Source of the DNA: a virus
Virus record (IMG/VR): IMGVR_UViG_3300047585_000208
Coordinates: 32,001 to 96,000 of that record
Strand: one strand, 5' to 3'
Length of the DNA: 64,000 nucleotides
Shown: positions 1-63,659 of the stretch, piece after piece
Layout: every line of letters begins with the position of its first letter
How positions within the stretch are numbered: the stretch's first letter is position 1
Position numbers and translations under genes: made by a program
The notes under the pieces: generated by a model
Told to the model about the DNA's origin: nothing
Seen by the model: only the letters and a program-made list of their open reading frames with translations
The model's database searches: none

Positions 1-35
1 GCTTAGTTGAGTAATGCATTACTCAGATAAAAACT

Positions 36-773
36 ATGGACGATTATCTAGAGCCCCATTTTGCAGAGCCATTTAAGGCCTGGCAAGCTAAGCCGACGTC
101 AGACGCTACTAGCTCGCTCCTAAAAGCTATTAATCCAGTCCTAGACGCGGCTGTAAGAACCTATGGCGGTAGTAAAGCTAGTCCTACGCTAAAGAGCCAC
201 GCTAAAGTTATGGCGCTTGACGCCCTAAAGCGCTACGACCCTTCCAGAGCTAAACTCCGTACCCATCTAATGGTTCAGTTGCAAGGTCTTAGGCGTGTGT
301 CTGCTAAAGAAGGCCAAATGGTCTCAATCCCTGAGCGCGTAGCGCTGCACCTTGGAATGCTGCACTCTGCTGAGAATGAACTCAAAGATCAGCTTGGTCG
401 TGATCCGTCTGATATTGAGCTAGCTGACCACACAAAGCTGTCTACAAAAAGAATTGCTTATATTCGGCAAGCTAAGCCTACTTACGCCGAAGGGCAATTT
501 ATGAGTCAGTCCGAAGAGGGCGGAGAAGAGCTAATCCATCCAGCTACAGCTGGGCTAAATGACGAACACTGGGTCAAATACGTTCACAGCGACCTCAGCC
601 CAACAGATCAAGTTATCCTTGAGCACTCTCTTGGGCTCTTTGGTAAGCGAAAATTGAATAAGGGCGCTATTGCTCGCAAACTCAATATGAGCGGCGGCGC
701 TGTTACTCAAAGAGCAGCTAAGATTCAATCGATGCTGGATAAAGGTAGTCAACTCGGGGCGGGATTAATTTAA
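36..773 (+). CDS. Sigma-70 family RNA polymerase sigma factor (FliA/SigF-like)
   Basis: Region-2-like ALKRYDPSRAKLRTH, region-3 LKDQLGRDPSDIELA, C-terminal HTH IARKLNMSGGAVTQR. Confidence 0.8.
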   Translation: MDDYLEPHFAEPFKAWQAKPTSDATSSLLKAINPVLDAAVRTYGGSKASPTLKSHAKVMALDALKRYDPSRAKLRTHLMVQLQGLRRVSAKEGQMVSIPERVALHLGMLHSAENELKDQLGRDPSDIELADHTKLSTKRIAYIRQAKPTYAEGQFMSQSEEGGEELIHPATAGLNDEHWVKYVHSDLSPTDQVILEHSLGLFGKRKLNKGAIARKLNMSGGAVTQRAAKIQSMLDKGSQLGAGLI

Positions 774-1205
774 ATGCCTATCGGACATCTGGATTCAAAT
801 TATGTCGCCCAGAGTAATACACTCGCGGACTACGGCACAACTGACGGTGATGCCAACCTTGAACAAGATCAGCGAATGTGGATGGTCCCAGAGCTAAATG
901 GGGCTTCTTGGGATATTCCTGGCTGGGCAGCTGCTTATTCACGAAAAGGCATTGGAGATGTTTATACCCAGGTCTTGTCTTACCCGAGTGGCTCAGCTGG
1001 CGACGCGATGGCTATGAAGATGCAATCGGATTATGTGGCTACTCAAGAGCGAGCTTATAGGCTTAGGCAGCTTAGCCCAGTTAGGGCTTGTATGCATGCG
1101 GCAGCTCGCAGGCTAGGCCATGGGCAAGACAACGGTATATTTGGTCGAATTGATTCTACTATCCAAGACGTAATTGCTGCTGGCGCAGCAGGATTTTCGA
1201 GTTAG
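774..1205 (+). CDS. Hypothetical phage protein
   Basis: 143 aa ORF abutting the sigma factor stop codon. Confidence 0.6.
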   Translation: MPIGHLDSNYVAQSNTLADYGTTDGDANLEQDQRMWMVPELNGASWDIPGWAAAYSRKGIGDVYTQVLSYPSGSAGDAMAMKMQSDYVATQERAYRLRQLSPVRACMHAAARRLGHGQDNGIFGRIDSTIQDVIAAGAAGFSS

Positions 1206-1207
1206 CA

Positions 1208-1765
1208 ATGCCAGATATTCTGGTTTACACCACTAGCTCAGACGGTCAAATTCTTGTCACCTCAGTTGGGTCGACTCAAGGTATCCCTGCAATTACGCCT
1301 TCGGGGCAGATTACAGCCCCGGCTACTCCGACCTACGTTCAATCCTTAACGCTTAGCTTTGTCCAGCCTGGAACGAACGATCAGTTGATTTTTGGTCCCG
1401 GCTACAGCGGTTTTACTATCCAGGGTGGTCAAAAGCTTGTTCAGCGCTTTCTTCTTCAGTTGTTGACAGTTCAAGGGTCGATTCTCTATAGGCCGCAAAT
1501 TGGAACGAACTTTGTTCCTGAGCTTCAAACGCCTCTTGGCTCAAACGAGTCAGACGTCTTTGCTGCTTTCGCCGCTGCGATGCTTACTCTAGGCCCAAAT
1601 ATGTGGGCAGAGGAGCTTGTTACTGATCCGCCAGACGAACGCTTCTCTAGCGCGACCATGACTCAGCTAACAGTTGGCTCTGGGTCACTCTCTGCTACGA
1701 TTGTGATAGTTAGCTTGGCAGGCGGTACTCAAACGATGTCGCTTCCGCTGAACTTTGCAATTTGA
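1208..1765 (+). CDS. Baseplate wedge protein, gp25-like
   Basis: KLVQRFLLQLLTVQGSILYRPQIGT resembles the gp25/GPW motif; lies directly upstream of a baseplate J-like gene. Confidence 0.6.
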   Translation: MPDILVYTTSSDGQILVTSVGSTQGIPAITPSGQITAPATPTYVQSLTLSFVQPGTNDQLIFGPGYSGFTIQGGQKLVQRFLLQLLTVQGSILYRPQIGTNFVPELQTPLGSNESDVFAAFAAAMLTLGPNMWAEELVTDPPDERFSSATMTQLTVGSGSLSATIVIVSLAGGTQTMSLPLNFAI

Positions 1766-1796
1766 GTAATGCGTTACTCAACTTTAGGCCTGGATT

Positions 1797-4670: not shown

Positions 4671-4741
4671 GCGGGTATAGTTCAAGGGTAGAACCCTAGT
4701 TTTCCAAACTAGTCACGTCGGCTCGACTCCGACTACCCGCT
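4671..4741 (+). tRNA. tRNA-Gly (anticodon TCC)
   Basis: Acceptor stem GCGGGTA/TACCCGC, D-arm GTTC/GAAC, anticodon arm CTAGT-TTTCCAA-ACTAG, T-arm GTCGG-CTCGACT-CCGAC; CCA not encoded. Confidence 0.9.
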
Positions 4742-4779
4742 ATAAGCTGAGTAACGCATTACTCAAATGAGTGCGCACA

Positions 4780-8238: not shown

Positions 8239-9945
8239 GTGGCTCTCTGGGAATTCCCCACAACGTCGCTTGACTCCTTAGCCACTTTTCAGGCGTTCTC
8301 TTCGTCTTATTGGATTGCTGGTCTATTTGGTTCTATCGAGAACATTCTCGATATCAACAATCTTTTCAAAGTTGTTGAAACGCAATTACTAGAACAAAGC
8401 CAGGAGATGCAGGCTTCAGTTGGGCTACAAACCTGCCCAGTCTGGCATACCAGCTGCTGGTATCCAGTAACAATCTTTCAGTCACAAGGAACCCCGGGAA
8501 ATCCGCTCCTATACGGCGCAGGGGAGCTTTATGGGCCACAACCATCAAATCAACCCTCCAGCCCCGTCTCAAGCTTAACTGGGCAATCTATAGGCCTACT
8601 CAGCGCGATCACCTACAGCTCTAACCAGCCACAACCCATTCCTACGAACGGATTGACCTATCTTTACGGCCAAAACCTTGACTCAACAATCAAATATCCT
8701 CTTCCAGGCGAAGTCAGCGAAGCTCTCTATCTTGCGAGTGGTATAACCAATCCGAGCGTAACCTGGGCTTTAGGGGTGGATTTCGAAATAGCGTCTGGTG
8801 AGTCCTTAATCCTTACCCAGAACCCTTTCAGTAATGCATTACTCAACCCAACTGCTGTTACCAACACTTTGGGCGATATTATCGATTACTCATTAACTCT
8901 GTGGTTATTCCGTGCCAAACTTGACTGGGGCTATCTTTACCAGAACTTCGGTTCTGTCTTAGGGATTGGTCAAAGTTTGCCCAGTACTCCGAATTACAAA
9001 AGGTTATTGGAAGCTTACTGGTCTTCGGCTCAAGGAACCACATATGAAAACGTAGTGGAAGCTTTGAGCGCAATGTGCGACGTTCCTTTTGTGAAGTCAA
9101 CTGGTGAAACAGTTGAAATAATTTCTGAAGATAGCGAAAACCTTCTAATCATCACAGATCAACAAGTTTACAAGTTGGCCTTAACAGCTAATCCTTTAGT
9201 GCAAATTGGGCAAACACTAGTTGAAGGACAAGCTTTAGCAGACTCTGTTCAAATCTTTGAGCCTCGTAGAGGCATCCTTCCAAGCGTAATTGGACAAATC
9301 ACACTAGATGACGAGTTTCTGTTAACTGACCTTTCAAACATTCTCGTGTTCGCGAATGTAAACGAGTCGCTGAATGTTCAAACTAACGTCCAAGGTTATA
9401 CGAAGCTCAGCTGGAACCTTGGGGGCTTTCCATCCGACATTGCGACCTTCTTCTCAGATCTTCATGAAAACGGCGTAGAGGCTGGTAATACACTCGCTAA
9501 CTACCTCAGAACTAGCAATGAGCCTTATCCCTGGAGCCTAGAAGAAACTATTTGGTCTAATTGGCAAGTGCCTTGGGGCCAGACTCAGCCACTACCAACG
9601 CTTAACTGGAGTGACGAATCAACTGTTTGGTGGTTATGGAAGCAGCCGTGGGGGCAAGGTGGACCAACCAATCAGCCAACTGCATCTCAACTGCCTACCA
9701 ATATCAACCCAGCTCAGTTTTTAGTTGCTAACGTACTTCGGGATGATTGCTTACTTATTTCGGTTAAACCAGACGAGTTTGGACCAGCTGCACTAGGTCT
9801 TCAGTATTCCTGGGTATTTCGCGAGATGCTTCCACCCCAGACTACTGCGATAATTATTGGAGAAGTGGCTGGTTATGTCGATACGTGTAACGCCGTAGCT
9901 GGGGCCACCTCAAGCTACACAGTAATGGCTGTTCCGGGGCAATGA
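8239..9945 (+). CDS. Putative baseplate/tail structural protein
   Basis: 568 aa, acidic and Thr/Ser-rich; position within the baseplate cluster; LYQNFGSVLG motif. Confidence 0.5.
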   Translation: MALWEFPTTSLDSLATFQAFSSSYWIAGLFGSIENILDINNLFKVVETQLLEQSQEMQASVGLQTCPVWHTSCWYPVTIFQSQGTPGNPLLYGAGELYGPQPSNQPSSPVSSLTGQSIGLLSAITYSSNQPQPIPTNGLTYLYGQNLDSTIKYPLPGEVSEALYLASGITNPSVTWALGVDFEIASGESLILTQNPFSNALLNPTAVTNTLGDIIDYSLTLWLFRAKLDWGYLYQNFGSVLGIGQSLPSTPNYKRLLEAYWSSAQGTTYENVVEALSAMCDVPFVKSTGETVEIISEDSENLLIITDQQVYKLALTANPLVQIGQTLVEGQALADSVQIFEPRRGILPSVIGQITLDDEFLLTDLSNILVFANVNESLNVQTNVQGYTKLSWNLGGFPSDIATFFSDLHENGVEAGNTLANYLRTSNEPYPWSLEETIWSNWQVPWGQTQPLPTLNWSDESTVWWLWKQPWGQGGPTNQPTASQLPTNINPAQFLVANVLRDDCLLISVKPDEFGPAALGLQYSWVFREMLPPQTTAIIIGEVAGYVDTCNAVAGATSSYTVMAVPGQ

Positions 9946-9946: not shown

Positions 9947-10525
9947 ATGGTTAAAGGTTATTACGAAATCAGCTCTGTGGAGGAAGCCACTGGAATCCGT
10001 AAGCCGCTTTTCTCGCGAGCTAACCAGCTTATGGTTAGCTGGGGGTGGATCGCAGCTCAAGCTATTGGACTAGGAAATCCGGCTTATAAGGTAGCTGGTG
10101 GGTATCTTGAGTTCCAAAATGTCGCAGATACCGGCAATACTGTTCCTGTTCCGAATTTCTTGCCGACAGACGGGCTTTCCTATTTCAACAACCTGCCCGC
10201 TGGAAATGACTACCTTCGGTTACCATTAGCGACTACGCCGACAATCAGTATCGCGCCAGGTTATAACTCATCCTTTATTTCTGGTTTTTCTGGTAACCAG
10301 GTGACCTTTACTCTGCAATCAGGTGGAACAGTCGGGGTCAACGGGCTACCATTTAATTACCAGTCGCTGTCAACTATTTTTGGTATTACGCTGGTTGCAA
10401 TGCCTGTCGCTAATTCACCATCGCAAGATGTGATTTTAAGTCGTGGTTATTTTCTGCCAAGCGACCAGCAGCTAAAAGCTTACGGCTATCAAACAGCTGT
10501 TTCCTGGGCGATCACGTTTGAGTAA
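9947..10525 (+). CDS. Putative baseplate/tail protein
   Basis: Beta-rich; N-terminal NQLMVSWG and C-terminal AVSWAITF resemble tail-collar-like proteins. Confidence 0.45.
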   Translation: MVKGYYEISSVEEATGIRKPLFSRANQLMVSWGWIAAQAIGLGNPAYKVAGGYLEFQNVADTGNTVPVPNFLPTDGLSYFNNLPAGNDYLRLPLATTPTISIAPGYNSSFISGFSGNQVTFTLQSGGTVGVNGLPFNYQSLSTIFGITLVAMPVANSPSQDVILSRGYFLPSDQQLKAYGYQTAVSWAITFE

Positions 10526-10546
10526 TGCGTTACTCAAGAGGAACCA

Positions 10547-11392: not shown

Positions 11393-13179
11393 TGCCGCAG
11401 TACGATACCGGAAATTGCCCAGGTAAGCCTTCACCAGGAGATCATTTTTTAATTGGTCCTTCCGGACTACCGGTCTGTCCAAATAGCTTTACGCCGATAA
11501 CAACCGCTTCCTCGGTGTTGATCGTCTCAATCGCGTATTTTCATGTTACTTCGCCTATTTCAGCCGGTATGCAGATTTTGACGCCTAGCAGTATGCAAGG
11601 CATTATCAACGGTGCTAGTTATTATTGCGATACAGGAGAAAATCAAGAGCTGGTCACGCTTATCGCAGTAGGTTCAACAACCCTTACGGCGGTCTTTGCG
11701 TATGACCACGAAGCTAATACACAGTTTGCTGGTGGACCAACTACAGTTAGCTCAGTAAGCTATTACTGGCCAGGGCAAGTAAGCTCTTTTAGTGGTTCAG
11801 ACGATATCTCGTACATCGGTAACATTTGGATTCTTGACCCGAACGCTGTCCCGCCAGCTCCAGTCATTTATTACACTGGAGCGCTATGTGTCGGCACAAC
11901 CGGCGGTTTGCCGGTCTACTGGCTCACTAGCATAATCGAATATTTTCCAGTTCAGATCACAGACGCGTATCGCAGCGATCTGCCCGGTATTACATGGGGA
12001 ACTTACGACGAGACCTATGAGTCAATTGATACTCCTTGGGGCGGGCTAATCTTCTATAGCTGGCTAGAGCAGATCAGAAACTTTTCAACAGTTAATTATT
12101 TCCCGCTGCCTGCAGGCAGAACTGGAAGTGCCGCTTTAAATCCTGCGCTTGAGATAAACAATCTTGACCTGATTGACGCTATCCCTTTCATAGCTGAAGC
12201 CAAATATTCAGCCTTAATCCCCGGGCTTGGGTTTGTATACGAGTTTACTGACCCAGTTGAAGACGGTGTTGGGGTTGCATACGATGGAGAGTTCATCGGC
12301 ATTGAGCCAATCATCAACTTCATTGCTGGTCAAAATATCGAGCTCGCGATCGAAGATGTGCCAGAAGATGAGCAGATTGATGTTGAAATTACTGCCCTTA
12401 CAACAGTTGAATCCGCCGGCACCCCTGTAGGAACTGAAAAGAATATCAACTTTATTGCTGGGCCGAATATTGGATTAACCATCGCAGATGACCCTAGTTA
12501 TTACCGTGTTGATATCGGTATTACTGGTTTTGTTAGTGTCGAGAATAGCGGTTCTTATGTTGGCACTGAAGAGTACATTAACTTCATCGCTGATCAAAAT
12601 ATTTCTTTAAACATTACCAATAATCCGACCAATAACCGGGTCGATGTAGCGATTACTGGGCTTGTTTCAGTTGAGGACGACGGAGATGACGTAGGTACTG
12701 AGAAAAACATCAACTTCATTGCTGATCAGAATATTGAATTAGACATTACGGATGACCCGGACAATGCTCGCGTCGATGTGGCGATTACTGGGCTTGTAAC
12801 GGTTGAAGACAGCGGTGAAGAGGTTGGAACAGAAAAAAACCTTAACTTCATTGCCGAGCAAAACATTGATTTGACAATTACAGACAACCCCGACGATAAT
12901 CGCGTTGATATTAAAATTGAAGCGCTTACAAGTGTTGAGAACAACGGTTCACTTGTAGGAACCGAACCAAACATCAATATAATCAATACCTGTTTGTCAG
13001 CTATAGTTGTCAGTGTCGTTAATAATACGGAAGACAATCGAATCGATATTACGATTAAAGATGCGGCTATGGAACAAGTAACTATTGTTGAATCGTTTAA
13101 TCCATCAACTTGTGAAGTTACAGATTTTACGTTGTGCGTTCCATCTGCCTGGATAAACGCTTCTTGTACAGATTGTTAA
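11392..13179 (+). CDS. Putative tail fiber/virion protein with six 44-aa repeats
   Basis: Acidic protein with GTEKNINFIADQNI...RVDVAITG repeats. Confidence 0.55.
   Translation: MPQYDTGNCPGKPSPGDHFLIGPSGLPVCPNSFTPITTASSVLIVSIAYFHVTSPISAGMQILTPSSMQGIINGASYYCDTGENQELVTLIAVGSTTLTAVFAYDHEANTQFAGGPTTVSSVSYYWPGQVSSFSGSDDISYIGNIWILDPNAVPPAPVIYYTGALCVGTTGGLPVYWLTSIIEYFPVQITDAYRSDLPGITWGTYDETYESIDTPWGGLIFYSWLEQIRNFSTVNYFPLPAGRTGSAALNPALEINNLDLIDAIPFIAEAKYSALIPGLGFVYEFTDPVEDGVGVAYDGEFIGIEPIINFIAGQNIELAIEDVPEDEQIDVEITALTTVESAGTPVGTEKNINFIAGPNIGLTIADDPSYYRVDIGITGFVSVENSGSYVGTEEYINFIADQNISLNITNNPTNNRVDVAITGLVSVEDDGDDVGTEKNINFIADQNIELDITDDPDNARVDVAITGLVTVEDSGEEVGTEKNLNFIAEQNIDLTITDNPDDNRVDIKIEALTSVENNGSLVGTEPNINIINTCLSAIVVSVVNNTEDNRIDITIKDAAMEQVTIVESFNPSTCEVTDFTLCVPSAWINASCTDC
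12298..13062 (+). repeat. Intragenic tandem repeat, 132 bp (44 aa) x about 6
   Basis: Units start at 12298, 12430, 12562, 12694, 12826, 12958. Confidence 0.9.
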
Positions 13180-15741: not shown

Positions 15742-15786
15742 TGCGTAGCTTTGCTGAGTAACGCATTACTCAGAAAGGAAAAAGAC

Positions 15787-16927: not shown

Positions 16928-17368
16928 GTGCGGCGTATTTTACGGTACCATTTCAAGGGACTGGCTAAGCTTGCAACTTGCTCACCCGGGCAAGCGCTAA
17001 TTGTGTGGTTGTACAGCTGGCCCGATATTAACGAAGTGTGGTTAGACACAATAGTAGAAGCTTTCGAAGAAGAGCTTCTACTGTTTGCCCAACAGTTAGA
17101 TAGGGAGCTTACGTCCAGTGAACAATCTTCTGATTGGCACGGACAAGCTTGTTTGTCTAATTTACCGGACTATTGGCTAACAATCTGGGATAACCGAACG
17201 GCGGCAATAAGCCGCAGAGAAAACGCTATAGACCTTACAACCGGTGAAGACCTGCCAAAGGACTATAATCCTAAACCGCTTTATAGCGTTGCGATTTGCC
17301 TGACCAAGTTGTTCTTGATCGGACGAGCAGGACTTTTCCGCGAACAAACCAAACAAAAACTTGAGTAA
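16928..17368 (+). CDS. Hypothetical protein
   Basis: 146 aa; stop codon lies inside the palindrome. Confidence 0.5.
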   Translation: MRRILRYHFKGLAKLATCSPGQALIVWLYSWPDINEVWLDTIVEAFEEELLLFAQQLDRELTSSEQSSDWHGQACLSNLPDYWLTIWDNRTAAISRRENAIDLTTGEDLPKDYNPKPLYSVAICLTKLFLIGRAGLFREQTKQKLE

Positions 17369-17443
17369 CGCATTACTCAAATTTCGGCGTAGATTACAAA
17401 TACGCCGCCATCGCTAATTGCCCGATCCAGCCGTGGAACGATA

Positions 17444-18571: not shown

Positions 18572-18649
18572 CGCATTACTCAACTCCGAGTCAGGAGGCA
18601 TACTGGCTACTCGGCAAAGGCCGCATCGTTTCTATAACACGGTGAGCCA

Positions 18650-19060
18650 ATGATGTACATGTCGAGCATCAAGATGCAAACAACTGTCAAGAAGTCGGTA
18701 CTTCTTGAAACACTCAAGAAGAACTTAGCCGTTCATGAGACGATCGTTAAAGAAGCGTTTGCTGGCTACGCTAAAGCAGCCAAGCATCTTCTGGCGGACA
18801 AACTGGCTAAGTTTGAAAAGGGTGAATACCCGTCTTTAGCTTGTCGGCTGGAAAGACCAGATGATTGCAGCGAGGTCTACAAGACCTCCATCCACATGCT
18901 GGAATTAAACAACGACGACCTTATCGTTCTGTCTCCGGATGAATTCCGACAACTTGTAGAAGACAAATGGGACTGGACTAACTCTTTCTTTGCCAAAAAC
19001 AGCACTTACTCTTTGACTGCCTCACGAATGAGCAATAATAGCGATGAAGACTCTTGGTGA
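18650..19060 (+). CDS. Hypothetical phage protein
   Basis: 136 aa, helical, VEDKWDW. Confidence 0.6.
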   Translation: MMYMSSIKMQTTVKKSVLLETLKKNLAVHETIVKEAFAGYAKAAKHLLADKLAKFEKGEYPSLACRLERPDDCSEVYKTSIHMLELNNDDLIVLSPDEFRQLVEDKWDWTNSFFAKNSTYSLTASRMSNNSDEDSW

Positions 19061-19094
19061 CTATTCGTGAAAAGATCGCGGGAAAGGTTCTTCA

Positions 19095-19799: not shown

Positions 19800-19863
19800 C
19801 TTCGGCAGAGGCGTATCTGCCGCATACCTAGGTGTTCGTCCTATTCAGTTCTCAAGGAGAAAT

Positions 19864-20454: not shown

Positions 20455-20478
20455 CTTCCGAAAGGCTTCCCAGGTGGC

Positions 20479-20595
20479 ATGTTCGAAATCAAGGTCAGTG
20501 ACATTCAACCTCTTCTGCAATACTTGACCGACGACCAGATCAACATGCTCACAACCATCCTCCAAGCCGAAAAGACCGCTCGCAGCAAGAAGTAA
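20479..20595 (+). CDS. Small hypothetical peptide (38 aa)
   Basis: AGGT RBS-like sequence; open frame MFEIKVSDIQ... Confidence 0.35.
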   Translation: MFEIKVSDIQPLLQYLTDDQINMLTTILQAEKTARSKK

Positions 20596-21123: not shown

Positions 21124-21130
21124 AGGGAAC

Positions 21131-21557: not shown

Positions 21558-21586
21558 GTAATGCGTTACTCAGAAAGGACGATTAA

Positions 21587-48822: not shown

Positions 48823-49057
48823 TGTGATTTTTATGTTGACTGCGGTTTTCGGACAGCTGTTGGTATTTGGAGCCGGTTATATGTTGTGTCGGCAATGCTT
48901 GGTACACGAGTATCGGATGCGAGCGTTGAAGTATCCGACTAAGACTTTTGCTGAGCTTACGGCTAGGTTTAATCGATTACCTAGTCGAGCAAAGATGATA
49001 TGGGCGTTGAACAAATTTGATTGGGACGAGTACTTGAATGGGTCGGACGCTAGTTGA
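48815..49057 (+). CDS. Small membrane protein
   Basis: AAGGAGG RBS; N-terminal TM helix; stop lies in the palindrome. Confidence 0.5.
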   Translation: MGSVIFMLTAVFGQLLVFGAGYMLCRQCLVHEYRMRALKYPTKTFAELTARFNRLPSRAKMIWALNKFDWDEYLNGSDAS

Positions 49058-49084
49058 GTAACGTATTACTCAGAAAGGAGAAGG

Positions 49085-49381: not shown

Positions 49382-49417
49382 AAAGTTAAGTAACGCATTA
49401 CTCAGAAAGGAGGATAA

Positions 49418-49660
49418 ATGGCAGAAATAATTCACCGACAGGGTTGTGACTCGTCTGGGGTCGGTGGTGACTACGACGATTTCCTGTCTACGACTTTATA
49501 TGGTGCTGGTGGTCCAGATTTAGGTGCTGGAGATGTTACCGGTACTGGAAGCGACGCTGGCACTGGCGCAGGTTGTGGATTTTCTAACTTTTCGTATAGG
49601 GGTTCCGGAGCTGGGTATGGACGTAGCCATGGTAATGCCTATTTCTCTGGTATGGGCTGA
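49418..49660 (+). CDS. Gly-rich micro-protein family
   Basis: GAGGPDLGAG...GSGAGYG; palindromes on both sides. Confidence 0.6.
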   Translation: MAEIIHRQGCDSSGVGGDYDDFLSTTLYGAGGPDLGAGDVTGTGSDAGTGAGCGFSNFSYRGSGAGYGRSHGNAYFSGMG

Positions 49661-49691
49661 GTAACGCATTACTCAGAAAAGAGAACTAATA

Positions 49692-52600
49692 ATGGAAGAT
49701 TTAGAGTTAGGTACTGACATTGGTTACTTAGTTGAAGCACTAGAGCCAGCTCTTGATTTTTATCCGCTTACTGCCCCAGGCATGCCGATGCCTGGTCCAG
49801 ATTTTCTAGAACAGGCTGCAGTTCTAGACTCAAAGAAACCAACTTATATCGGTACGGGGCCAGATAAGCGACTTTTGGCTTGCAGCCCAGTTCTAACTGA
49901 ACTTTATAAAGATGCACTCTACCAACCTGGTTTTCCTTTGCGAGTACAGGTAAAGGGCCGTACCCCAGAGACTCGTTTCTTGCCTGGTCACCTTTGGACT
50001 GATCGCCCAACTGGCCCAAGGCCCGCTAGGGTAATGGTCATAGGTAAGTGGCCAGGCCTCGACGAGATGAACGACAGTAGCTACATAGCTGGCGATGCAA
50101 TGCGTTTGTTTATGAAGGTCGCGAAGCAGTTTGGTGTTACGACTGCCGAAATGGCTGAATGGTACGTAACAGCGGTAATTAAGCATCCAAACGCGGATGT
50201 TACTTCGAATAAGCCTCCGAAGCGCCATATTACTAATTGCCTCATTCTCCTAGAGCAAGAGCTTCGTCTTGTAAAGCCAGATTATGTGCTGGCACTCGGT
50301 TCTGAGACTTTCACAGCTCTAATGGGGCCTGGGCATGGCGGAGTAACGGAAGCTCAAGGTACAGCCTTTGAGCGCAAGGTCGATTTAAGGCGTTCTGCAG
50401 AAGAACCTGAATCGTGGCATTATTACAAGCTGGTCGCCTGTATCCATCCGGCCGCCGTACTTCACGACAGCGCTGCTTATGAGACCGCCTTTGAAGTGGG
50501 TATTAAGTACTTTGCTGACATGATCAGCGGGCATGTCGCAGCTGAGGTAAAGCCAGAGATAAATTACCAACTGATTTATAACACCCAACACCTTGGCGCA
50601 ATTGTTGATGAAATACTCGCTGAAGATTCAGCTCCTGCTGTCGCGATAGACTGCGAGTGGCAAGGTGAGTATCCAACAGAGCCAGGGGCTTGGCTTAGAA
50701 CGATTCAGTTCAGCCATAAGCCGACGTTTGCTGCGTGTATCGTTTTGAGGCAGGCTGGTGGGAAGGTTGCCTTTAGGGGTGATCACGCTACGCTTGTCCG
50801 GCAGCTTCGAAGGCTTTTACTGGGTGAGGGCCATAGGTTAGTCGGGCATAGTGTTCGATCTGACCTTCCGTGGATTCAGCTTGGGCTTGATGAACAACTT
50901 GGTTTGGATTTGATTGAGTCATCTGGTGTAGCTGCTACTGCGGAGCTTACGAAGACTGAAGGTGGTTTTGACACGATGTACGCCGCCCACGCTGTCAAGG
51001 AGACGCTAAAGAGCTATTCGCTGGATATGCTTGGTATCCAGTTTTGTGGGCTTAAGAACTACGCGCAAGACCTTGAGCGGTGGAAAGCTGCTTATTGTAA
51101 GGAACATAAGCTCGACAGTAAGAGTCTTGGCGGGTATGGGATGTGTCCTGACGAGATTTTACACCCGTACGCCCTCATGGACGTAATAGTCACTCAGGAG
51201 CTTTATAGGAAATTTAATGACGAGCTACTAGACTGCGATGAGTTTGGTAATTCGTCGAGAGTTCCGTTCTGGATGACTATGCGAGCGCACAGAGCATTTC
51301 TTGAAATGGAGATGAACGGGATTCTGATTGACCGGCAAAGGGGTGAGCAACTTACAGCGACGTTTCTTCAAGCTCGTGATGAGCTGGTAGCTAAGCTTAA
51401 GAAGCTGTTTAACTGGCCGACGTTCAACCCAAGGTCGGCGCAGCAGTGTAAGGTAGCGCTGTTTGGGCCTCAGTACTCTGGGAAGTACGTTAACGGTAAG
51501 CCTGTCGACGTAAGACCGGAAGGGGCGCTGACTTTAGGCTTGCGACCTATTAAGTCTTCTGGCAAGCCTTCGATGAACTGGAACAGGGTCGAGCGAATGG
51601 GCTTGGCTAATGTTTACAGTCCTTGTACTGATAAGGAGACGCTTGGTGGGTTGGCTACTTTATTAAAAGGTAGCGAGGTAACAGGAGAAGCGGATCAATT
51701 TGGGTATGAGCATGTGTGCACACTGAGGAATGCTAAGTTCATTGCGCACGCGGTTACATCCGTGTTGCGAAAACCAAAGGTTGACGAACAAGATAATGTT
51801 GTCAAGGATGAAGAAGGTAATACCGAATACGAAGACGGGCTTTTGTCTTTTATTCAGGCTGACGGCAGGATCAGGACACACATTTATTCCACTAAAGAAA
51901 CTGGTCGCGTAAGTAACGCTAGACCTAATACCCAAGCAATTTCGAAAAGACGCGAGTCGTCCTATAAAAGTATTCTTGGTAAGAATTACCGATTCCCTAT
52001 GCGGACTATGCTTAGGGCTACACCGGGATACGTTTTTGTTGAAGCAGACTTCATAGGCGCTGAAATCGCGATGTTGGCGATTCAAGCTGGTGATGAGAAG
52101 TTGATTGATCATGTCCGTCGGGCAAATCTTCCAGATAGCGACCCGCAGAAGTACGATGTCCATGCGAGTATTGCCGTTAAAGCTTTTCGACTTGATTGCG
52201 CTCCTACTAAAGCTGGTTTGAAGAAGGTGAAGCGTGGAGATAAGACTGTCGATTTAAGCTACCTTCGCGACGTGACCAAAACACTTGTTTTTGGTTTGGC
52301 CTACGGTCGTGGTAATGAGGCGATTGTTAGAGCGGTTCAAGAAGAAGGTGTGTTGATTTCGGCATCGGAAGCTGAAGCAATTAGACAAGCAGTTCTTGGC
52401 GAGTATTCTCGACTTGATCCTTTCTTTGACGCTTGCAAAGCCCGGGTAACAAACCCCGGGTGGATCAGGAGTTGTTTCGGTCGTTATCGTAGAGCCGGCC
52501 GTATTCGGACTGACGATAACGGTGGAACAGAACGTGAATTCATGAATTTTCCGATTCAGGGCGGGATTGCTGATGCTACGAATGTGGCGCTGGAGAATTT

Positions 52601-52925
52601 GAGAGACTACCCTGCTCGTCGAGACGAGAATGGAGAGCTCAAGTATAAGTTGAGCCTTCAAGTTCATGACGCGGTTTTGACGGAAGTGATGATTAAGCAC
52701 CTCGGTTGGTTTGTTGGAACGCACGAGCAGCCGGGCGTACTCGGAAAGTGCATGAGTGAACAGGTTCCGATTTATCAGTGCGATTTGAACGGGGTCCGTA
52801 GGCCTGGAACGCCTGTACATTACCTTGGGATTGAGTCGGCCGTGGCCCTGCACTGGGGCGAAAAAATAAAAAAAGAAATTGCGCTTGATTTAAGAATACC
52901 GCTTCAATATATTGCCTCTTCTTAA
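49692..52925 (+). CDS. DNA polymerase family A with N-terminal uracil-DNA-glycosylase-like domain
   Basis: UDG-like PARVMVIGKWPG...HPAAVL; 3'-5' exonuclease AIDCE / YALMD; TGRVS; motif A EADFIGAE, motif B RDVTKTLVFGLAYG, motif C QVHD. Confidence 0.92.
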   Translation: MEDLELGTDIGYLVEALEPALDFYPLTAPGMPMPGPDFLEQAAVLDSKKPTYIGTGPDKRLLACSPVLTELYKDALYQPGFPLRVQVKGRTPETRFLPGHLWTDRPTGPRPARVMVIGKWPGLDEMNDSSYIAGDAMRLFMKVAKQFGVTTAEMAEWYVTAVIKHPNADVTSNKPPKRHITNCLILLEQELRLVKPDYVLALGSETFTALMGPGHGGVTEAQGTAFERKVDLRRSAEEPESWHYYKLVACIHPAAVLHDSAAYETAFEVGIKYFADMISGHVAAEVKPEINYQLIYNTQHLGAIVDEILAEDSAPAVAIDCEWQGEYPTEPGAWLRTIQFSHKPTFAACIVLRQAGGKVAFRGDHATLVRQLRRLLLGEGHRLVGHSVRSDLPWIQLGLDEQLGLDLIESSGVAATAELTKTEGGFDTMYAAHAVKETLKSYSLDMLGIQFCGLKNYAQDLERWKAAYCKEHKLDSKSLGGYGMCPDEILHPYALMDVIVTQELYRKFNDELLDCDEFGNSSRVPFWMTMRAHRAFLEMEMNGILIDRQRGEQLTATFLQARDELVAKLKKLFNWPTFNPRSAQQCKVALFGPQYSGKYVNGKPVDVRPEGALTLGLRPIKSSGKPSMNWNRVERMGLANVYSPCTDKETLGGLATLLKGSEVTGEADQFGYEHVCTLRNAKFIAHAVTSVLRKPKVDEQDNVVKDEEGNTEYEDGLLSFIQADGRIRTHIYSTKETGRVSNARPNTQAISKRRESSYKSILGKNYRFPMRTMLRATPGYVFVEADFIGAEIAMLAIQAGDEKLIDHVRRANLPDSDPQKYDVHASIAVKAFRLDCAPTKAGLKKVKRGDKTVDLSYLRDVTKTLVFGLAYGRGNEAIVRAVQEEGVLISASEAEAIRQAVLGEYSRLDPFFDACKARVTNPGWIRSCFGRYRRAGRIRTDDNGGTEREFMNFPIQGGIADATNVALENLRDYPARRDENGELKYKLSLQVHDAVLTEVMIKHLGWFVGTHEQPGVLGKCMSEQVPIYQCDLNGVRRPGTPVHYLGIESAVALHWGEKIKKEIALDLRIPLQYIASS

Positions 52926-53044
52926 GTTCCACTGTATTAATTTAAGTTTGTTTTATTTGAGTAATGCGTTACTCAACTTTTGGCGTAGAGGAATTATTCG
53001 CCAGTTAATTGACACTAGTAAACTGATTTCTTAAGGAGATTTTT

Positions 53045-54467: not shown

Positions 54468-54500
54468 GGCCGAGGCTCTTCGGAGCCTCGGCTGCTTTTT
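54468..54500 (+). terminator. Rho-independent terminator with cUUCGg loop
   Basis: GGCCGAGGCTC-TTCG-GAGCCTCGGCT followed by GCTTTTT. Confidence 0.8.
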
Positions 54501-54513
54501 CCAAGAGGGTCAG

Positions 54514-55869: not shown

Positions 55870-56050
55870 GCCACGTGAGCCTAAACACACGGTTCAACGG
55901 CATTGGACGTTCTTTTGGGATACCGAGTTATCCGAGAAGCGGATGATTGAGATATCCGAGTGGATCGGGTCCTTATCTTTGGAAGACAGAGGTAAGCTCA
56001 CAGACCTAATGAAAGATCATACGGAAGATATTAACTTCCAGGAATTTTGA
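55847..56050 (+). CDS. Hypothetical protein
   Basis: GGAGG RBS; stop lies in a degenerate palindrome. Confidence 0.45.
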   Translation: MRLRKLSKPREPKHTVQRHWTFFWDTELSEKRMIEISEWIGSLSLEDRGKLTDLMKDHTEDINFQEF

Positions 56051-56083
56051 GTAACGCATCAATCAATCTTAAAGGAGCGGTTA

Positions 56084-56353: not shown

Positions 56354-56406
56354 CTGAGCCCGTTTGAGGACATTTGAGTAGCACATTACTCAGAAAGGGG
56401 TAGTCG

Positions 56407-57188: not shown

Positions 57189-57433
57189 ATGTTCTTTCAG
57201 CCGGTCGTGGAGATGGTACTGGCCCGGCGGATAGAGAGGTTTACGCTATTTGCGCTTATGGAAGCCCATCGGAAAGCTCTGGCTACGGGTGTGGGCAAAT
57301 CAATGCCGGCGGCTCGAAAGATGCAACAGGAGAAGCTACTGGTAAGATTTGTTCTGGAATAGGTTCAATAACTGGTTATGCGTACGGCGTAGGCGTAGGT
57401 TCTGGTTGTGTGAATATGACCGGTTTAGGCTGA
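57182..57433 (+). CDS. Gly-rich micro-protein family
   Basis: GRGDGTG...GYAYGVGVGSG..TGLG; stop lies in the palindrome. Confidence 0.6.
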   Translation: MLDVLSAGRGDGTGPADREVYAICAYGSPSESSGYGCGQINAGGSKDATGEATGKICSGIGSITGYAYGVGVGSGCVNMTGLG

Positions 57434-57507
57434 GTAATGCATTACTCAATTTCTCGTCAGAGAATCATCTGACGCTTATCTAAATTTCATCCAGTAAGGA
57501 GTCTGCT

Positions 57508-57813: not shown

Positions 57814-57852
57814 CGCTAATTGAGTAACGCATTATTCAAAAGGAGCGGCGCA

Positions 57853-59644: not shown

Positions 59645-60481
59645 ATGGTTGGGGCTACGATGGTTAGGGAAAGAACACGCAAGGAAGAATTTGAAGACAT
59701 GGAGCTCGCTCGGGACGACATGAACGACGCGCTCCGTGAGCAGTACGACGGGATTTTTAGTCTGGTGTGCGATGACGCGAACACCCAGATTCAGCATTAT
59801 TGGCAGATTGGTAAAGTTGTTGACGACATTCTTGACAACGAGACAAAGTACGGGTCGGATGCGCTTAAGCGACTTGTGGCAGCTATGGGTAAGCAAACTC
59901 TTTCTTACTTTCATCGTGCCAGGAATCTTTATCAGCTGATTGACGAGATTGAGCTTAGGAAGATCCTTTCGTATAGGAGGAAGTATTCAAAACTGCCGGT
60001 TACGCTGTCGCACCTGTCAAGAATTACTGGTGTGACAGATCAAAGGAAACGACTAAAGCTGCTCACAGATCTTTGCGAGCAAGAACAGTCTTTTGATGAG
60101 TTTGTCGCGTCTGTCGATAAGACGCTTAATCGAACTATCGCCGAGCGTAACGCCGGTGGTCGGAAACACAAAGTGCCGGTTACTGCGATTGGCAAGGTCA
60201 GTAATTTCTGCGAGTCAGCTAGGTTCGTGTGTGCGAGGGCTGACCAGGTTTGGCTTAACGAGGATTACCTCTTCTCTAAAGCCATCTCTGAGACTGCCCC
60301 AGACAAGGTTACGCCAGAGCTAATCGAAACTATCGATCAAGCTATTGGCTGTGCTGTTGATCTGGAGTCTGCTGCCAAGAAGATTCGAAATGAAGCTGGT
60401 AAGGCTAGAGAATTAGCAGCTAAGATTGCTGCAACTCACGCCGAGCAGCTTGGTTATGCCGATGTGGAGGGAATTGAATGA
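59645..60481 (+). CDS. Hypothetical protein with DUF1016 N-terminal-like segment
   Basis: HYWQIGKVV...KYGSDALKRL...LSHL; AGGAG RBS. Confidence 0.5.
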   Translation: MVGATMVRERTRKEEFEDMELARDDMNDALREQYDGIFSLVCDDANTQIQHYWQIGKVVDDILDNETKYGSDALKRLVAAMGKQTLSYFHRARNLYQLIDEIELRKILSYRRKYSKLPVTLSHLSRITGVTDQRKRLKLLTDLCEQEQSFDEFVASVDKTLNRTIAERNAGGRKHKVPVTAIGKVSNFCESARFVCARADQVWLNEDYLFSKAISETAPDKVTPELIETIDQAIGCAVDLESAAKKIRNEAGKARELAAKIAATHAEQLGYADVEGIE

Positions 60482-61299: not shown

Positions 61300-61505
61300 T
61301 GGGTGCCTGGGGCGAGTTCATTTCTTGTGAGTTAGTATTTGCGCTTATTTTTGGGCTTGTTGGCTATGGACTTGGTGAAAGCGCCAGAGCCGTTTCTTTT
61401 GGGGTGGCTTTTGGCCTGACTTTCGGTTTGCTTGTTCTTGGTGGTGGTACGCCGGCTGTTGAAGAAGTAGAAGACGAGCCAGTTGAAACTCCTAAACCTG
61501 AGTAA
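61299..61505 (+). CDS. Small membrane protein with acidic tail
   Basis: Two hydrophobic segments; stop lies in the palindrome. Confidence 0.5.
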   Translation: MGAWGEFISCELVFALIFGLVGYGLGESARAVSFGVAFGLTFGLLVLGGGTPAVEEVEDEPVETPKPE

Positions 61506-61557
61506 TGCATTACTCAAACCCTTGGTAGAGGGTTTTTATCTACCAGAAGGGGCGGCT

Positions 61558-61758: not shown

Positions 61759-61862
61759 TGACACACGATGGCTTCACAACTGGACAAGCGTCAAAGTATA
61801 TCAAAAGGCACCCTAAGACCTTGCAGACGCTTGATCGTGCCGGCAGATTGCCGGCCAAGTGA
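61758..61862 (+). pseudogene. Truncated IS607 TnpA (MerR-type HTH only)
   Basis: MTHDGFTTGQASKYIKRHPKTLQTLDRAGRLPAK* resembles the IS607 TnpA N-terminus; serine-recombinase domain absent. Confidence 0.6.
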
Positions 61863-61981
61863 GCTTCGACTTGCTTGATCTTGAACAGCAACGAAAATGT
61901 TTTCATTACACGAAGCTTCAACCGTTATGGGCGGCTGATAATCATCGCAAGGGAAAACGCGCTCAAAGAAGTATTAAAGAC

Positions 61982-63142
61982 GTGAACCTGACACACAAGA
62001 TATCCCTGGACGCCACGTTCAAGCAACGGCATTATTTTGCCCGCGCTGCTGGTACGTCCAGGTTTGTTTACAACCACGCTTTAGCCGAATGGAATCGTCA
62101 ATACTCGGCCGGAGGCAGGCCAACTGCTAACGCCTTGAAGCTGCAATTCAATGCGACGTACAAGGAACTATGGCCCTGGATTGAGGATGTTCACCGCGAT
62201 TGCCATTCCCAACCTTTTGCAGATCTTGGCAAAGCGTTCGGCAATTTTTTCAAGGGCCTGGCCAAACGGCCAGTGTTCAAGAAACGCGGTAAAAGCAGGG
62301 CGTCATTTTACGTCGCCAATGACAAGTTTAGCGTGCGTGGCAACACGGTGAGGTTGCCAGTGATCGGCAAAGTGAAGATGCGAGAAGCGTTGCGGTTCAC
62401 CGGCAAGATCAATTCGGCCCGCGTGGTTGAAGAGTGCGGCCAGTGGTTCATTTGTATTTCTGTGGACGTTGGTGAGTTCAGTAAGCCACGCACTGGAGAC
62501 AGCGTTGTGGGCGTGGACGTTGGCGTTAAAGTGTTGGCCACGCTCGACACGGGCGAACAGATTGAGAATCCCCGTCCGCTCAAGAAGGCTCAGAAAAGAT
62601 TACGCCGAGCAAACCGAAAGCTTGCCCGTCGCGTGAAGGGGTCGGCCAACAGGAATAAACAGCGGCAGGTTGTGGCCCGCATCCACCGCCGCATTCGTAA
62701 TATCCGTCACGATGTTCTGCACAAATTCACGTCGCGGCTGGCCAAAAACCACGGCACAGTCGTGATCGAAGACCTCAACGTCAAAGGAATGGTGAAAAAC
62801 CATTGTTTGGCGCAAGCGATCAGCGATGCTGGGTTTGGCATGTTCCGTCAATTTCTCGGCTACAAGGTCGTGATACACGGAACGCGGATTGTCGTGGCGG
62901 ATAGGTTTTATCCCAGTTCGAAGATGTGTTCGCGCTGCGGAAGAGTCAAGTCTGAGCTTTCACTCAGCGAGCGAGTGTTCATTTGCGAATGCGGTAACGT
63001 TATTGACCGCGACTGGAACGCCGCTTTGAACCTGAAACAACTAGGGGCGGCTAGCCCCGAAGTAACGCCTGTGGAGTCGTCATGGGGCGACAGTGAAGCA
63101 GGAACTACACCGCGAGCAGACTCACGTTTGCTCACAAGGTAG
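61982..63142 (+). CDS. tnpB: RNA-guided endonuclease TnpB (IS607 type)
   Basis: HKISLD...AGTSRFVYN; GVDVG; VIEDL; FYPSSKMCSRCG...CECG; DRDWNAALN; probable GTG start at 61982. Confidence 0.92.
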   Translation: MNLTHKISLDATFKQRHYFARAAGTSRFVYNHALAEWNRQYSAGGRPTANALKLQFNATYKELWPWIEDVHRDCHSQPFADLGKAFGNFFKGLAKRPVFKKRGKSRASFYVANDKFSVRGNTVRLPVIGKVKMREALRFTGKINSARVVEECGQWFICISVDVGEFSKPRTGDSVVGVDVGVKVLATLDTGEQIENPRPLKKAQKRLRRANRKLARRVKGSANRNKQRQVVARIHRRIRNIRHDVLHKFTSRLAKNHGTVVIEDLNVKGMVKNHCLAQAISDAGFGMFRQFLGYKVVIHGTRIVVADRFYPSSKMCSRCGRVKSELSLSERVFICECGNVIDRDWNAALNLKQLGAASPEVTPVESSWGDSEAGTTPRADSRLLTR

Positions 63143-63156
63143 AAAGCAGTTGAAAA

Positions 63157-63567
63157 ATGTTGGTAGTCACTGCAAGTCATCTTGATATCGAGAGTTACAG
63201 GTTTGCTAAACACAAGCCTGCTGGAATCATTAACCGGAACACCAAAGAGAATTGGTGTGTCCGTCAGACCGATACAGATTCCGCCCTTTCACCAAGGCAC
63301 CTTTGGACGACAGTCGAAGACCATGTTCATATCCCGGTGCATCAGTACACAGCTCCAGCTGGAACAGACGTACAGCCTATTGGGCTAGGGATCAGTATTG
63401 GCTGTACCGCTGTGAACGACTTCTACGCAGACTATAAAAGACAGTTTCCGGATGCAAGGATTATCCGACTTCACCTAGTTCTTGGGCACGAGCCTAAGCT
63501 CCGTGGAGGAGTATTAGCGTTTTGGGTAGGATTTGCCTTCCTTGTGGAGGGCGTCCGATTTGATTAA
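63157..63567 (+). CDS. Hypothetical protein
   Basis: 136 aa ORF. Confidence 0.5.
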   Translation: MLVVTASHLDIESYRFAKHKPAGIINRNTKENWCVRQTDTDSALSPRHLWTTVEDHVHIPVHQYTAPAGTDVQPIGLGISIGCTAVNDFYADYKRQFPDARIIRLHLVLGHEPKLRGGVLAFWVGFAFLVEGVRFD

Positions 63568-63659
63568 AAGGAGGAATTACGAGCGTACCAATAGTCTCTG
63601 GTCGTTACTGGTGCACTTATCGCAGTAGTTGAGTAACGCATTACTCAAAAGGAGAAAGT

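Follow-up and report, generated by a model that had tools for sequence, protein, structure and literature searches.

A dispersed 18-bp palindrome at the gene junctions of a large uncultured phage is probably a double-stranded DNA site for transcription control

The uncultured virus IMGVR_UViG_3300047585_000208 (IMG/VR) carries an 18-bp palindrome, TGAGTAA-N4-TTACTCA, again and again at the junctions of its genes. What is this word, and what reads it? The DNA analyzed here (the window) is a stretch of 64,000 nucleotides, positions 32001-96000 of a virus contig of 137,890 bp that is rated 67% complete. The contig holding the window is called G000, and site coordinates are window positions unless they are marked as contig positions. 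A first-pass annotation, made from the letters of the window alone, had reported about 34 copies between 8 and 63647 and had proposed an undescribed regulatory or recombination system. We find that the palindrome is probably a double-stranded DNA site for transcription control, of either sign. More tentatively, we read it as a start signal, i.e., as a phage-specific promoter or an activator site.

The exact palindrome occurs 20 times in the window (mean of 100 dinucleotide shuffles 0.00). With up to two mismatches in the arms, which defines a near-exact copy throughout, the count is 33 (shuffle mean 0.20, maximum 2), and a decayed copy at 21877 completes the 34 reported before. The extent was also given correctly, as the first copy lies at 8-25 and the last at 63630-63647. 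In the whole contig, there are 41 exact copies and 62 with at most two mismatches, and the reversed control pattern gave 0. Judged by the counts against shuffles and by the whole-contig scan, the palindrome is a real repeated element. Its copies are solitary, with a mean spacing of about 2.2 kb in the contig, and a search for other repeated words found none repeated comparably. The position table of the 62 copies gives a consensus of 20 bp, Y-TGAGTAA-YGCA-TTACTCA-R; between -60 and +80, only the dyad and a weak purine-rich Shine-Dalgarno (SD) signal carry information. All centres named at first pass (TGCA, CGCA, TGCG, TACG, CGTA, GGCA, and GCCG) were recovered, and CACA was found additionally.

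Is the word read as DNA or as RNA? The copies look more like sites on double-stranded DNA that a two-fold symmetric protein would bind, which the earlier annotation had favored, than like RNA hairpins. Across the copies, the arm sequence is fixed and the centre is variable, which is the reverse of the pattern of a structured RNA. A left-arm change breaks the pair 1:18 or 2:17 in 16 of the 62 copies and is compensated in none of them. The flanking positions are pyrimidine at -1 (58/62) and purine at +19 (61/62), and they vary independently (T/A 27, T/G 12, C/A 12, C/G 6; Fisher p = 1.0). Within the centre, C8 is present in 28 copies and G11 in 11, and no copy has both (about 5 expected). In two relatives described below, G001 and G003, the dyad extends as far as the innermost 2 bp, so that a hairpin loop is impossible there. 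The predicted hairpin of G000 is weak (-6.7 and -8.9 kcal/mol in two contexts, z -2.1 and -2.5), and the variant with a TAAG arm at 21239 is not predicted to fold into this hairpin. An Rfam search of the window matched a tRNA only and left the palindrome without a match, and no U-tract follows the dyad in the position table. Fixed arms, lack of compensation, independent flanks, loopless dyads of the relatives, a weak hairpin, and the absence of an Rfam match thus all point to double-stranded DNA as the form that is recognized.

The site is symmetric in sequence and has a polarity. The predominance of left-arm mismatches, which had been taken as a hint of directionality, holds contig-wide with 19 left-arm against 5 right-arm mismatches (p = 0.007); 17 copies vary in the left arm only and 3 in the right arm only (p = 0.003). 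In the left arm, T1 is changed to C and G2 to A; the right arm hardly ever shows the corresponding mirror changes. As both are neutral for the upstream frame, they are not forced by it. The centre is also biased, with CGCA on the coding strand in 27 copies and TGCG in 8 (p = 0.002). Both orientations of the asymmetric centre are present, as had been noted, but in unequal numbers; hence, the argument for double-stranded DNA that had been drawn from them is weaker than stated.

Where do the copies lie relative to genes? Gene calls were made by a crude heuristic of open reading frames (ORFs) and SD words, and the junction, orthologue, and in-gene counts are therefore approximate, worst in G001 with 58% G+C. 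On the gene side, 33 of 62 copies are followed within 40 nt by an SD and by the start codon of a frame that stays open for 50 or more codons (random 4.8); the same test on the minus side gave 0/62 (random 1.0). At most 10 of 62 copies lie in genes, though the contig is 92% coding. On either strand, TGA and TAA close two frames of the word, which will therefore seldom be found inside genes and will often provide the stop of the upstream gene. In the window, the left arm holds the stop codon of a frame of at least 45 codons in 18 of 33 copies (17 had been counted), an SD-like word follows within 14 nt in 18 of 33 (about 18 had been claimed), and AAAGG is present in the first 9 nt in 13 of 33. 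Structural, replication, and accessory genes are all marked alike, as the first reading had it.

The presence of a copy is associated with what type of gene lies downstream (odds ratio 2.9, p = 0.012) and more weakly with the upstream type (odds ratio 1.8, p = 0.18). A copy was found at 23 of 51 junctions between two accessory genes and at 5 of 27 between two core genes; where the two types meet, it was 8 of 26 (core-accessory) and 5 of 26 (accessory-core). Copies are concentrated in segments that differ between G000 and G001. Four tandem paralogous genes of 95-97 aa, 27-33% identical, occupy 21270-22521; each of them is preceded by a copy and an SD, so the unit of copy, SD, and gene has been duplicated. 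Two copies (contig 108583 and 112647) come immediately after terminator-like hairpins, and one copy occupies the divergent gap ahead of the gene at 29455. The spacing is more even than expected: the coefficient of variation is 0.75 in G000 (0.98 expected, P = 0.012), 0.48 in G001 (0.96 expected, reached in 0 of 5000 simulations), and 0.475 in G003 (0.89 expected, P = 0.007).

Is the layout peculiar to this phage? The DNA polymerase encoded at 49692-52925 combines 3'-5' exonuclease, UDG, and PolA domains in one fusion protein and has 96 further homologues, many of them on contigs of about 150-230 kb of uncultured phages. By alignment of these homologues, 80 loci of about 23 kb were fetched from IMG/VR; the relatives' contigs, G001 to G005, are all incomplete. 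The closest relative is G001 (162 kb), with 52% polymerase identity and 54 colinear genes in common with the contig; its DNA polymerase (L110:10001-14635) has 1583 aa and contains intein-type domains. G001 has another word, AGTATT-NN-AATACT, in 19 exact and 18 one-mismatch copies, 37 together (control 0). Its AGTA-N6-TACT core and spacing equal those of the G000 word, and one symmetric position pair differs. The test for SD, start codon, and open frame was positive for 12 of these 37 copies (random 4.0). G003, with 39% polymerase identity, has the word TTGATAGA-YR-TCTATCAA in 9 exact, 4 one-mismatch, and 2 two-mismatch copies (15 together; control 0), and 8 of the 13 best copies stand directly before an SD and a start codon. 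In G002, the word is AAAATC-YR-GATTTT (16 copies; control 3), and two of three copies read abut an SD. A fourth group (L162-164, L183) has the word AGTGGAGACGTCTCCACT. Overall, a repeated exact 7+7 palindrome was detected in 7 of the 80 polymerase loci and in 0 of 80 shuffled ones, and the other 73 showed no repeated palindrome at this stringency.

The G000 word itself appears to be owned by the phage. A scan of IMG/VR gave only 9 single sites. In 185,579 species genomes, a set from which the host may be absent, 111 stretches carried the word, one site each except one with two, and none approached the density in the phage. By these two scans, a host repeat was rejected as the source of the palindrome. 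In metagenome contigs, at least 119 stretches contain the word, and among the matches listed, none shares DNA or protein with the contig. On short metagenome contigs of two assemblies, we noticed the 18-mer within a longer, sometimes tandem repeat (ttttgc, the 18-mer, gcaaaa; loci L348, L362, L364-L366, L381, L394, L458, and others). These loci are dissimilar to the phage, and the repeat probably belongs to some other organism.

What could act at such a site? Bacterial-type RNA polymerase subunits beta and beta' are encoded in three of three relatives tested, namely G001, G002 (L464), and G003 (L466/L467). In G001, L210:3585-9485 encodes a 1966-aa fusion of a bacterial-type beta subunit and the N-terminal part of beta' (Pfam Rpb2_6 6e-49 and Rpb1_2 5e-21; PDB beta 1.5e-61) with a match to a LAGLIDADG-type domain; it is followed by L210:10497-12404, which encodes a protein of 635 aa that carries the C-terminal domain of beta'. 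Judged by its sequence matches, this polymerase appears far closer to cellular enzymes than expected of phiKZ-type phage polymerases. In the window, the plus-strand gene at 36-773 encodes a divergent member of the sigma-70 family (245 aa). It matches Sigma70_r3 with 24.6-26.1 bits at a cut-off of 25.3, 17 of its 18 weak PDB matches are sigma factors (best E = 0.018), and G001 has an orthologue with 56% identity. The protein may belong to the transcription machinery of the phage itself. Two arrangements are described in a review of jumbo phages, namely split phiKZ-type polymerases with no sigma, and sigma factors with no polymerase (PMC7824862). A cellular-type beta/beta' together with a sigma factor would be an unusual pairing.

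The protein that binds the palindrome had been guessed at first pass to be the sigma factor or the product of 42998-43936 or 59645-60481. The sigma gene is real, if weakly supported, but the palindrome has no -35/-10 layout. Neither of the other two showed signs of a DNA-binding regulator: 42998-43936 has no Pfam or PHROG match, and 59645-60481 has a sub-threshold DUF1016_N match only. Among ten conserved small proteins, Pfam matches at E up to 1 gave no palindrome-binding candidate. No -35/-10 pair 16-18 bp apart and no conserved partner element lies within 60 nt of the palindrome, and the window has no excess of sigma-70-like promoter matches (16, 15, and 16 against 20.0, 19.6, and 19.1 expected). 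A Pfam search with ten large proteins found nothing, including no T7-type polymerase, and a search of the contig with PF00940 (T7-type polymerase) had no match, its positive control also being silent.

Of the overall interpretation given at first pass, the double-stranded DNA site, its ownership by the phage, and its directionality are retained; the named binding proteins and the undescribed status are not. Our own proposal is as follows. A sequence-specific, probably homodimeric factor encoded by the phage would bind the 18-20-bp dyad, and the bound dyad would control transcription of the gene directly downstream. The bacterial-type RNA polymerase of the clade, perhaps with the phage sigma factor, would start at or just past the right arm, and the short leader would carry the SD only or, in 11 copies, a structured RNA hairpin. 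Word and reader would evolve in step between phages. The binding protein, the transcription start, and activation rather than repression are what we infer here. We prefer a start signal because copies abut the SD in several lineages, whatever the word, because the downstream half is better conserved, because presence follows the downstream gene, because words turn over between relatives as do the promoters of phage polymerases, and because the clade has its own polymerase. A stricter version, in which the dyad itself is the promoter of the phage's bacterial-type polymerase, read with a dimeric specificity factor, lacking -35/-10 elements, and ending at the start, seems doubtful to us.

Several observations weigh against a start signal. 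Among 52 plus-strand orthologue pairs, both members have a copy upstream in 1, only that of G000 in 8, only that of G001 in 3, and neither in 40. In G001, 24 of 37 copies lie inside crude ORF calls, at least 5 of them in genes that align with their G000 orthologue over almost the full length; the divergent gaps after two conserved minus-strand genes hold no copy; and neither the centre (CC 7, GG 6) nor the arms (11, 7) are biased. Strong terminator-like hairpins stand directly after two copies (window 33706, contig 102728), and positions after terminators where a promoter is obligatory lack a copy (window 33780-34095 and 54495-54513, contig ~102780-102935). A palindromic promoter would fire in both directions, and to our knowledge, none is known for a bacterial-type polymerase. 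No DNA-binding regulator was identified among the proteins scanned, and no beta domain or RNA polymerase gene was found in the 67%-complete contig; in G001, the polymerase gene is located upstream of the region common to G000, and hence a G000 counterpart may lie in the missing third. Finally, contigs of an RNA library span the copies at 21239 and 22515, so RNA, or carried-over DNA, reads through them. These come from one metatranscriptome library, show no strand, starts, or ends, may include DNA carry-over, and carry no information where they give no coverage; they cover 21161-21313 and 22442-22612, and the first starts within the 3' half of the terminator-like hairpin 21131-21167.

The main rival retains the DNA site and changes its sign. 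One dimeric repressor of the phage would bind dispersed operators and block initiation or elongation into the downstream gene, so that the sites would be the symmetric counterpart of stoperators or of P1-type operators, used for silencing or timing. Operators of helix-turn-helix dimers are usually 14-18 bp long, and dyad symmetry without compensation as well as the placement in short intergenic gaps, about one per 2.2 kb, are in line with such a roadblock; copies in genes, copies before terminators, and the read-through contigs are all unproblematic for it. In 144 proteins of 45-420 aa, however, the 25 best Pfam families included no repressor or integrase and gave no sign of lysogeny, the sole recombinase being a small resolvase by a TnpB-like gene. 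A simple symmetric block would not be expected to constrain the right arm more strongly or to bias the centre, and a start signal accounts at least equally well for the link to the downstream gene and for the tight SD abutment seen in several lineages. We regard a repressive roadblock as unlikely.

An RNA hairpin with a 7-bp stem and a 4-nt loop, transcribed and acting in processing, stability, insulation of the SD, or docking of a translational regulator, is improbable. Copies do stand in co-directional gene strings and are probably transcribed, two being bridged by the RNA-library contigs, and the fold energies and z values given above are on its side. The polarity would be compatible with a strand-specific element, and of the five changes in the right arm or the inner stem, three (A7 to G, C15 to T, A18 to G) are compatible with wobble pairing. 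Against this stand the fixed stems with variable loops, the 16 broken outer pairs that are never compensated, the predicted lack of folding of the TAAG variant, the missing Rfam match, the loopless dyads in G001 and G003, and the weakness of 7-bp arms that form two G-C pairs.

Could the words instead serve as 18-20-bp exchange points that shuffle accessory cassettes, possibly besides regulation? The enrichment of copies in segments variable between G000 and G001 (23/51 accessory-accessory against 5/27 core-core junctions), the three small genes without G001 counterpart that are separated by copies just before the polymerase gene, and the paralogue array with its repeated unit of copy, SD, and gene would all fit. 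For Cluster O mycobacteriophages, deletions by recombination between repeats were inferred by the authors (PMC4351075). But no exchange with a copy at both breakpoints was seen, no close relative being among the sequences compared, and the copies lack the sigma-70 promoter and terminator that define PeSLs. Recombination alone would also leave dyad symmetry, word turnover, and in-gene copies born by substitution unexplained, and we hold it to be very improbable.

A site of genome architecture, i.e., an even series of docking points for a protein that organizes the DNA in condensation, packaging, or replication and that would be confined to junctions since the word is untranslatable, is highly improbable. 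It would account for the more even than random spacing in G000, G001, and G003 and for the substitution-born copies in conserved genes where no junction is free, as well as for the in-gene copies of G001. However, the G003 word is open in two of three frames, and yet 8 of its 13 best copies abut an SD; copies about 320 bp apart in the paralogue array defy a spacing rule; and even spacing is equally expected for promoters of size-limited transcription units.

The hairpins that follow some copies suggest a last reading. In 11 copies, a hairpin with covarying stems follows the palindrome after 6-7 nt. Its covariance model (consensus ~CTTCGGCAGAGG...TATCTGCCG) finds 19 distinct places in the contig, the 10 training sequences and 9 new ones. 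Eight of the nine have no preceding palindrome (window 19797-19827 and 20607-20637; contig 3191, 3692, 4090, 16263, 136119, and 137197), and one, at contig 11933-11961, is directly followed by a palindrome. The model has 0 matches in G001. Palindrome and hairpin are thus separate modules that often share a gap. At contig 113432-115153, the phage encodes a Cas12m (nearly full length to PDB 23vw, E = 6e-38), the stop codon of which sits in a palindrome copy that a hairpin follows. The palindromes form no CRISPR repeat-spacer array next to cas12m: the copies are solitary, and 51 of 62 are without hairpin. In one study, Cas12m repeats have two predicted stems, the CRISPR RNA is cut within the repeat, and the protospacer adjacent motifs are T- or C-rich (PMC11013384). 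That the palindrome belongs to an array-less Cas12m system, as the first stem of an enlarged repeat or as the DNA target of a guide, is extremely improbable. In its favor, contig 11933-11979, a handle-like hairpin and then a copy, would give a guide equal to the palindrome, the phage-borne gene has its stop in one of the 11 hairpin-followed copies, and the complement of AAA before GGAG would put TTT beside many copies. Against it, 51 of 62 copies have no hairpin, 8 of 9 new hairpins have no preceding copy, the 5' flank on the guide-matching strand is mostly A-G-Y and hence neither T- nor C-rich, G001 has 37 palindromes and no match to the hairpin model, and no Cas12m was found in the incomplete contigs G001-G005 by a search without positive control.

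How does the palindrome compare with known systems? To call it undescribed was too strong, as dispersed palindromes of like build have been published for Cluster O mycobacteriophages. According to that report, their 17-bp palindrome TGTTCGG-N3-CCGAACA has 34 copies, is absent from the hosts, and was proposed to bind a dimeric protein, while the authors doubted a transcriptional role (PMC4351075). Both elements have nearly invariant 7-bp inverted arms, a short variable centre, and more than 30 copies per genome; in both, many copies are located in short intergenic gaps or near the 5' ends of genes, hosts lack the word, and indels lie between copies. The words themselves and the phage lineages are unrelated, and siphoviruses of about 70 kb stand against a phage of roughly 200 kb with sheath- and baseplate-like genes. 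In Corndog, about one third of the sites are well inside genes, against at most 10 of 62 here. SD abutment, the frequent supply of stop codons, and polarity distinguish the present word. Hence, the Cluster O palindrome is an analogue, not a relative.

Stoperators are asymmetric 13-mers, each read by a monomer; phage L5 has over twenty of them, located in promoters and in the short spaces between genes (PMC9283540). The present word resembles these Cluster A sites (L5 gp71) in its 62 dispersed copies, at most 10 of which are in called genes; in Cluster A, as described there, one phage protein reads all sites, acts on transcription, and the sites are polar with gene direction. As to orientation, centre (27:8) and arms (17:3) are biased in G000, and G001 shows no bias. 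Unlike stoperators, which belong to temperate phages with a known immunity repressor, the word is a dyad of 18-20 bp. With the PeSL cassettes of T4-type phages (PMC4122927), it shares repeated words that border variable, mostly small accessory genes and that are plausible sites of exchange. A PeSL consists of a sigma-70-type early promoter and a terminator stem-loop, whereas the palindrome has neither hexamers nor a U-tract.

Three further comparisons can be made. Promoters of T7, T3, and SP6 are words of 17-23 bp, near-identical within a genome, different between relatives, and present about once per 2 kb; they are non-palindromic and are read by a monomeric single-subunit polymerase. The palindrome is similar in its place immediately before genes and in the purine that comes right after it, and it differs in that the polymerase of the clade is of the bacterial multisubunit type. 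The C1 operators of P1 and the conserved inverted repeats of phiC31 are a dozen or more scattered, often intergenic sites for one repressor; both phages are temperate with identified repressors, and the P1 operators are asymmetric. In Cluster K, the start-associated sequences (SAS) and extended start-associated sequences (ESAS) are words just upstream of some start codons with an inverted-repeat companion, and their function is unexplained; SAS are asymmetric and include the ribosome site, whereas the dyad here stops just before the SD. In the literature searched, which did not extend to subscription journals, no paper on this word or on the palindromes of the clade was found, and sequence matches were primer coincidences only. 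What is new here is the clade, the SD abutment, the built-in stop codons, the measured polarity, and the even spacing, together with word turnover across a clade that has its own cellular-type polymerase.

The individual copies in the window, listed without strand, illustrate the layout. In a first set, a copy provides the upstream stop and stands before a start codon. The exact copy 8-25 (TGCA) has its TGA as the stop of a 598-codon frame, with the ATG of the sigma-like gene 10 nt downstream, and 1763-1780 (exact, TGCG) uses its TGA to end a 203-codon frame, with an ATG 16 nt downstream. At 10519-10536 (exact), TAA ends a 199-codon frame, and an SD and ATG follow 10 nt downstream. Exact copies at 31475-31492 and 35626-35643 both give the stop and precede, by 13 nt, an SD-led ATG and an SD-led GTG, respectively. 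The one-mismatch copy 35935-35952 (CGAG, GCCG) ends a 102-codon frame with its TAA and has SD and ATG 13 nt downstream. The exact copy 49055-49072 (CGTA), with stop and an SD-led TTG at 12 nt, is the first of the three copies that separate the three small genes without G001 counterpart; 49387-49404 (one mismatch, TAAG) precedes an SD-led ATG by 13 nt, and 49658-49675 (exact) gives a stop and precedes the ATG of the DNA polymerase by 16 nt. The copy 56048-56065, with two right-arm mismatches, gives a stop and has SD and ATG 18 nt downstream.

In and beside the paralogue array, 21239-21256 (one mismatch, TAAG) has SD and ATG 13 nt downstream, is bridged by an RNA-library contig, and lies 72 nt past the strong terminator-like hairpin 21131-21167. 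An SD and ATG lie 14 nt downstream of each of the next four: 21555-21572 (exact), between paralogous 95-aa genes, which gives a stop; 21877-21894, the decayed copy with three left-arm mismatches and an intact right arm; 22196-22213 (one mismatch, TAAG, GGCA), with TAA as the stop of a 110-codon frame; and 22515-22532 (one mismatch, TAAG, GGCA), which gives a stop and is bridged by an RNA-library contig. Elsewhere, SD and ATG follow 37500-37517 (one mismatch, TAAG) at 12 nt, 56375-56392 (one mismatch, A7 to G) at 14 nt, 57821-57838 (one right-arm mismatch, C15 to T) at 14 nt, and the exact copy 63630-63647 at 12 nt.

Other copies are followed by structure. The exact copy 17362-17379 ends a 176-codon frame with its TAA and, 6 nt on, is followed by the covarying hairpin 17380-17412; 18565-18582 (exact) ends a 392-codon frame likewise, before hairpin 18583-18614. 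Exact copies at 57431-57448 and 61499-61516 both give a stop and are followed 6 nt on by hairpin 57449-57479 and 7 nt on by hairpin 61517-61550, the latter upstream of a TnpB gene. The exact copy 29380-29397 lies in the divergent gap that separates the minus-strand terminase gene from the next plus-strand gene, with hairpin 29398-29430 7 nt on; 39262-39279 (one mismatch, TGCG arm, TACG centre) is followed by hairpin 39280-39312; 40631-40648 (exact) by gttttaaggagg; and 52958-52975 (exact), past the DNA polymerase gene, 6 nt on by hairpin 52976-53008. After 33706-33723 (exact, TACG), the strong terminator-like hairpin 33749-33779 begins 25 nt on. The exact copy 15755-15772 supplies the TAA stop of a 92-codon frame, and 4748-4765 (exact, CGCA) lies 6 nt past the tRNA gene 4671-4741 (Rfam 61.8 bits).

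Four copies in the window lie within genes. At 8828-8845 (one mismatch), the word is read as FSNALLN in a 568-aa gene, and at 41674-41691 (exact), the sole copy between 40631 and 49055, as LSNALLS in an SbcC-like gene. Both conserved genes align gaplessly to G001 proteins, so both internal copies arose from substitution, and a six-codon insertion as the origin of these two SNALL-reading copies was ruled out. The copy 26187-26204 (one mismatch, CGAG) is read as RVMHYS in an 889-aa gene. The copy 23773-23790 (two mismatches) lies within a minus-strand 401-aa gene; the GTG of a divergent plus-strand gene is 98 nt and its ATG 245 nt beyond it.

Regarding the rest of the genome, a megablast against cultured phages with 8 kb of sequence gave 0 matches, and the nearest cultured phages are not close. 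Among the matches listed, the terminase is at most 30% identical to those of cultured phages, with no mycobacteriophage among them, and an IMG/VR search with the terminase protein turned up no relative. The two largest conserved proteins were considered as polymerases and rejected, as Atlas leads point to sheath-like and baseplate-hub-like proteins instead. These are encoded at contig 17400-22019 (L206:400-5019; tail-sheath-like, 60% identical to G001, Atlas score 0.83, a lead only) and contig 22765-25347 (L206:5765-8347; gp5-like baseplate hub, 56% identical to G001, Atlas score 0.90, a lead only), and their resemblance suggests a contractile-tailed phage. A 427-aa TnpB (OrfB_IS605, TNB, and HTH) is encoded at 61859-63142. 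Two TnpB-like proteins with 49% mutual identity are encoded at 31910-32986 and at contig 126982-128061, the latter adjoining a small resolvase-domain gene (126227-127003) as an IS607-like pair. In the 144 proteins, Pfam also matched Thg1, two RNA-ligase families, SIMPL, GNAT, glycosyltransferase, and dGTP diphosphohydrolase domains, as well as one DUF1559 (SBP_bac_10) and one N_methyl; most genes scanned matched no family. DUF1559 is greatly expanded in Planctomycetota, and its match may hint at a host in this phylum.

For years, a few phages have been known to carry dispersed palindromes, which have stayed unexplained; the layout is now seen in several branches of one clade. With different words, it recurs in uncultured phages of roughly 200 kb, with polymerase genes on three contigs and sigma-like genes on two. 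If the words are start signals, they would provide a direct handle on the transcription of such phages by their own machinery and on the change of promoter specificity, and they would be short, portable, and mutually orthogonal control elements. If the dyad itself is the promoter, it would represent a new promoter class for a multisubunit polymerase and a ready set of orthogonal promoter/factor pairs. If the words are roadblock operators, the stoperator principle would also cover symmetric sites and phages of very large size. In both cases, the borders of transcription or of gene cassettes are marked by about 60 sites in a genome most of whose scanned genes match no family.

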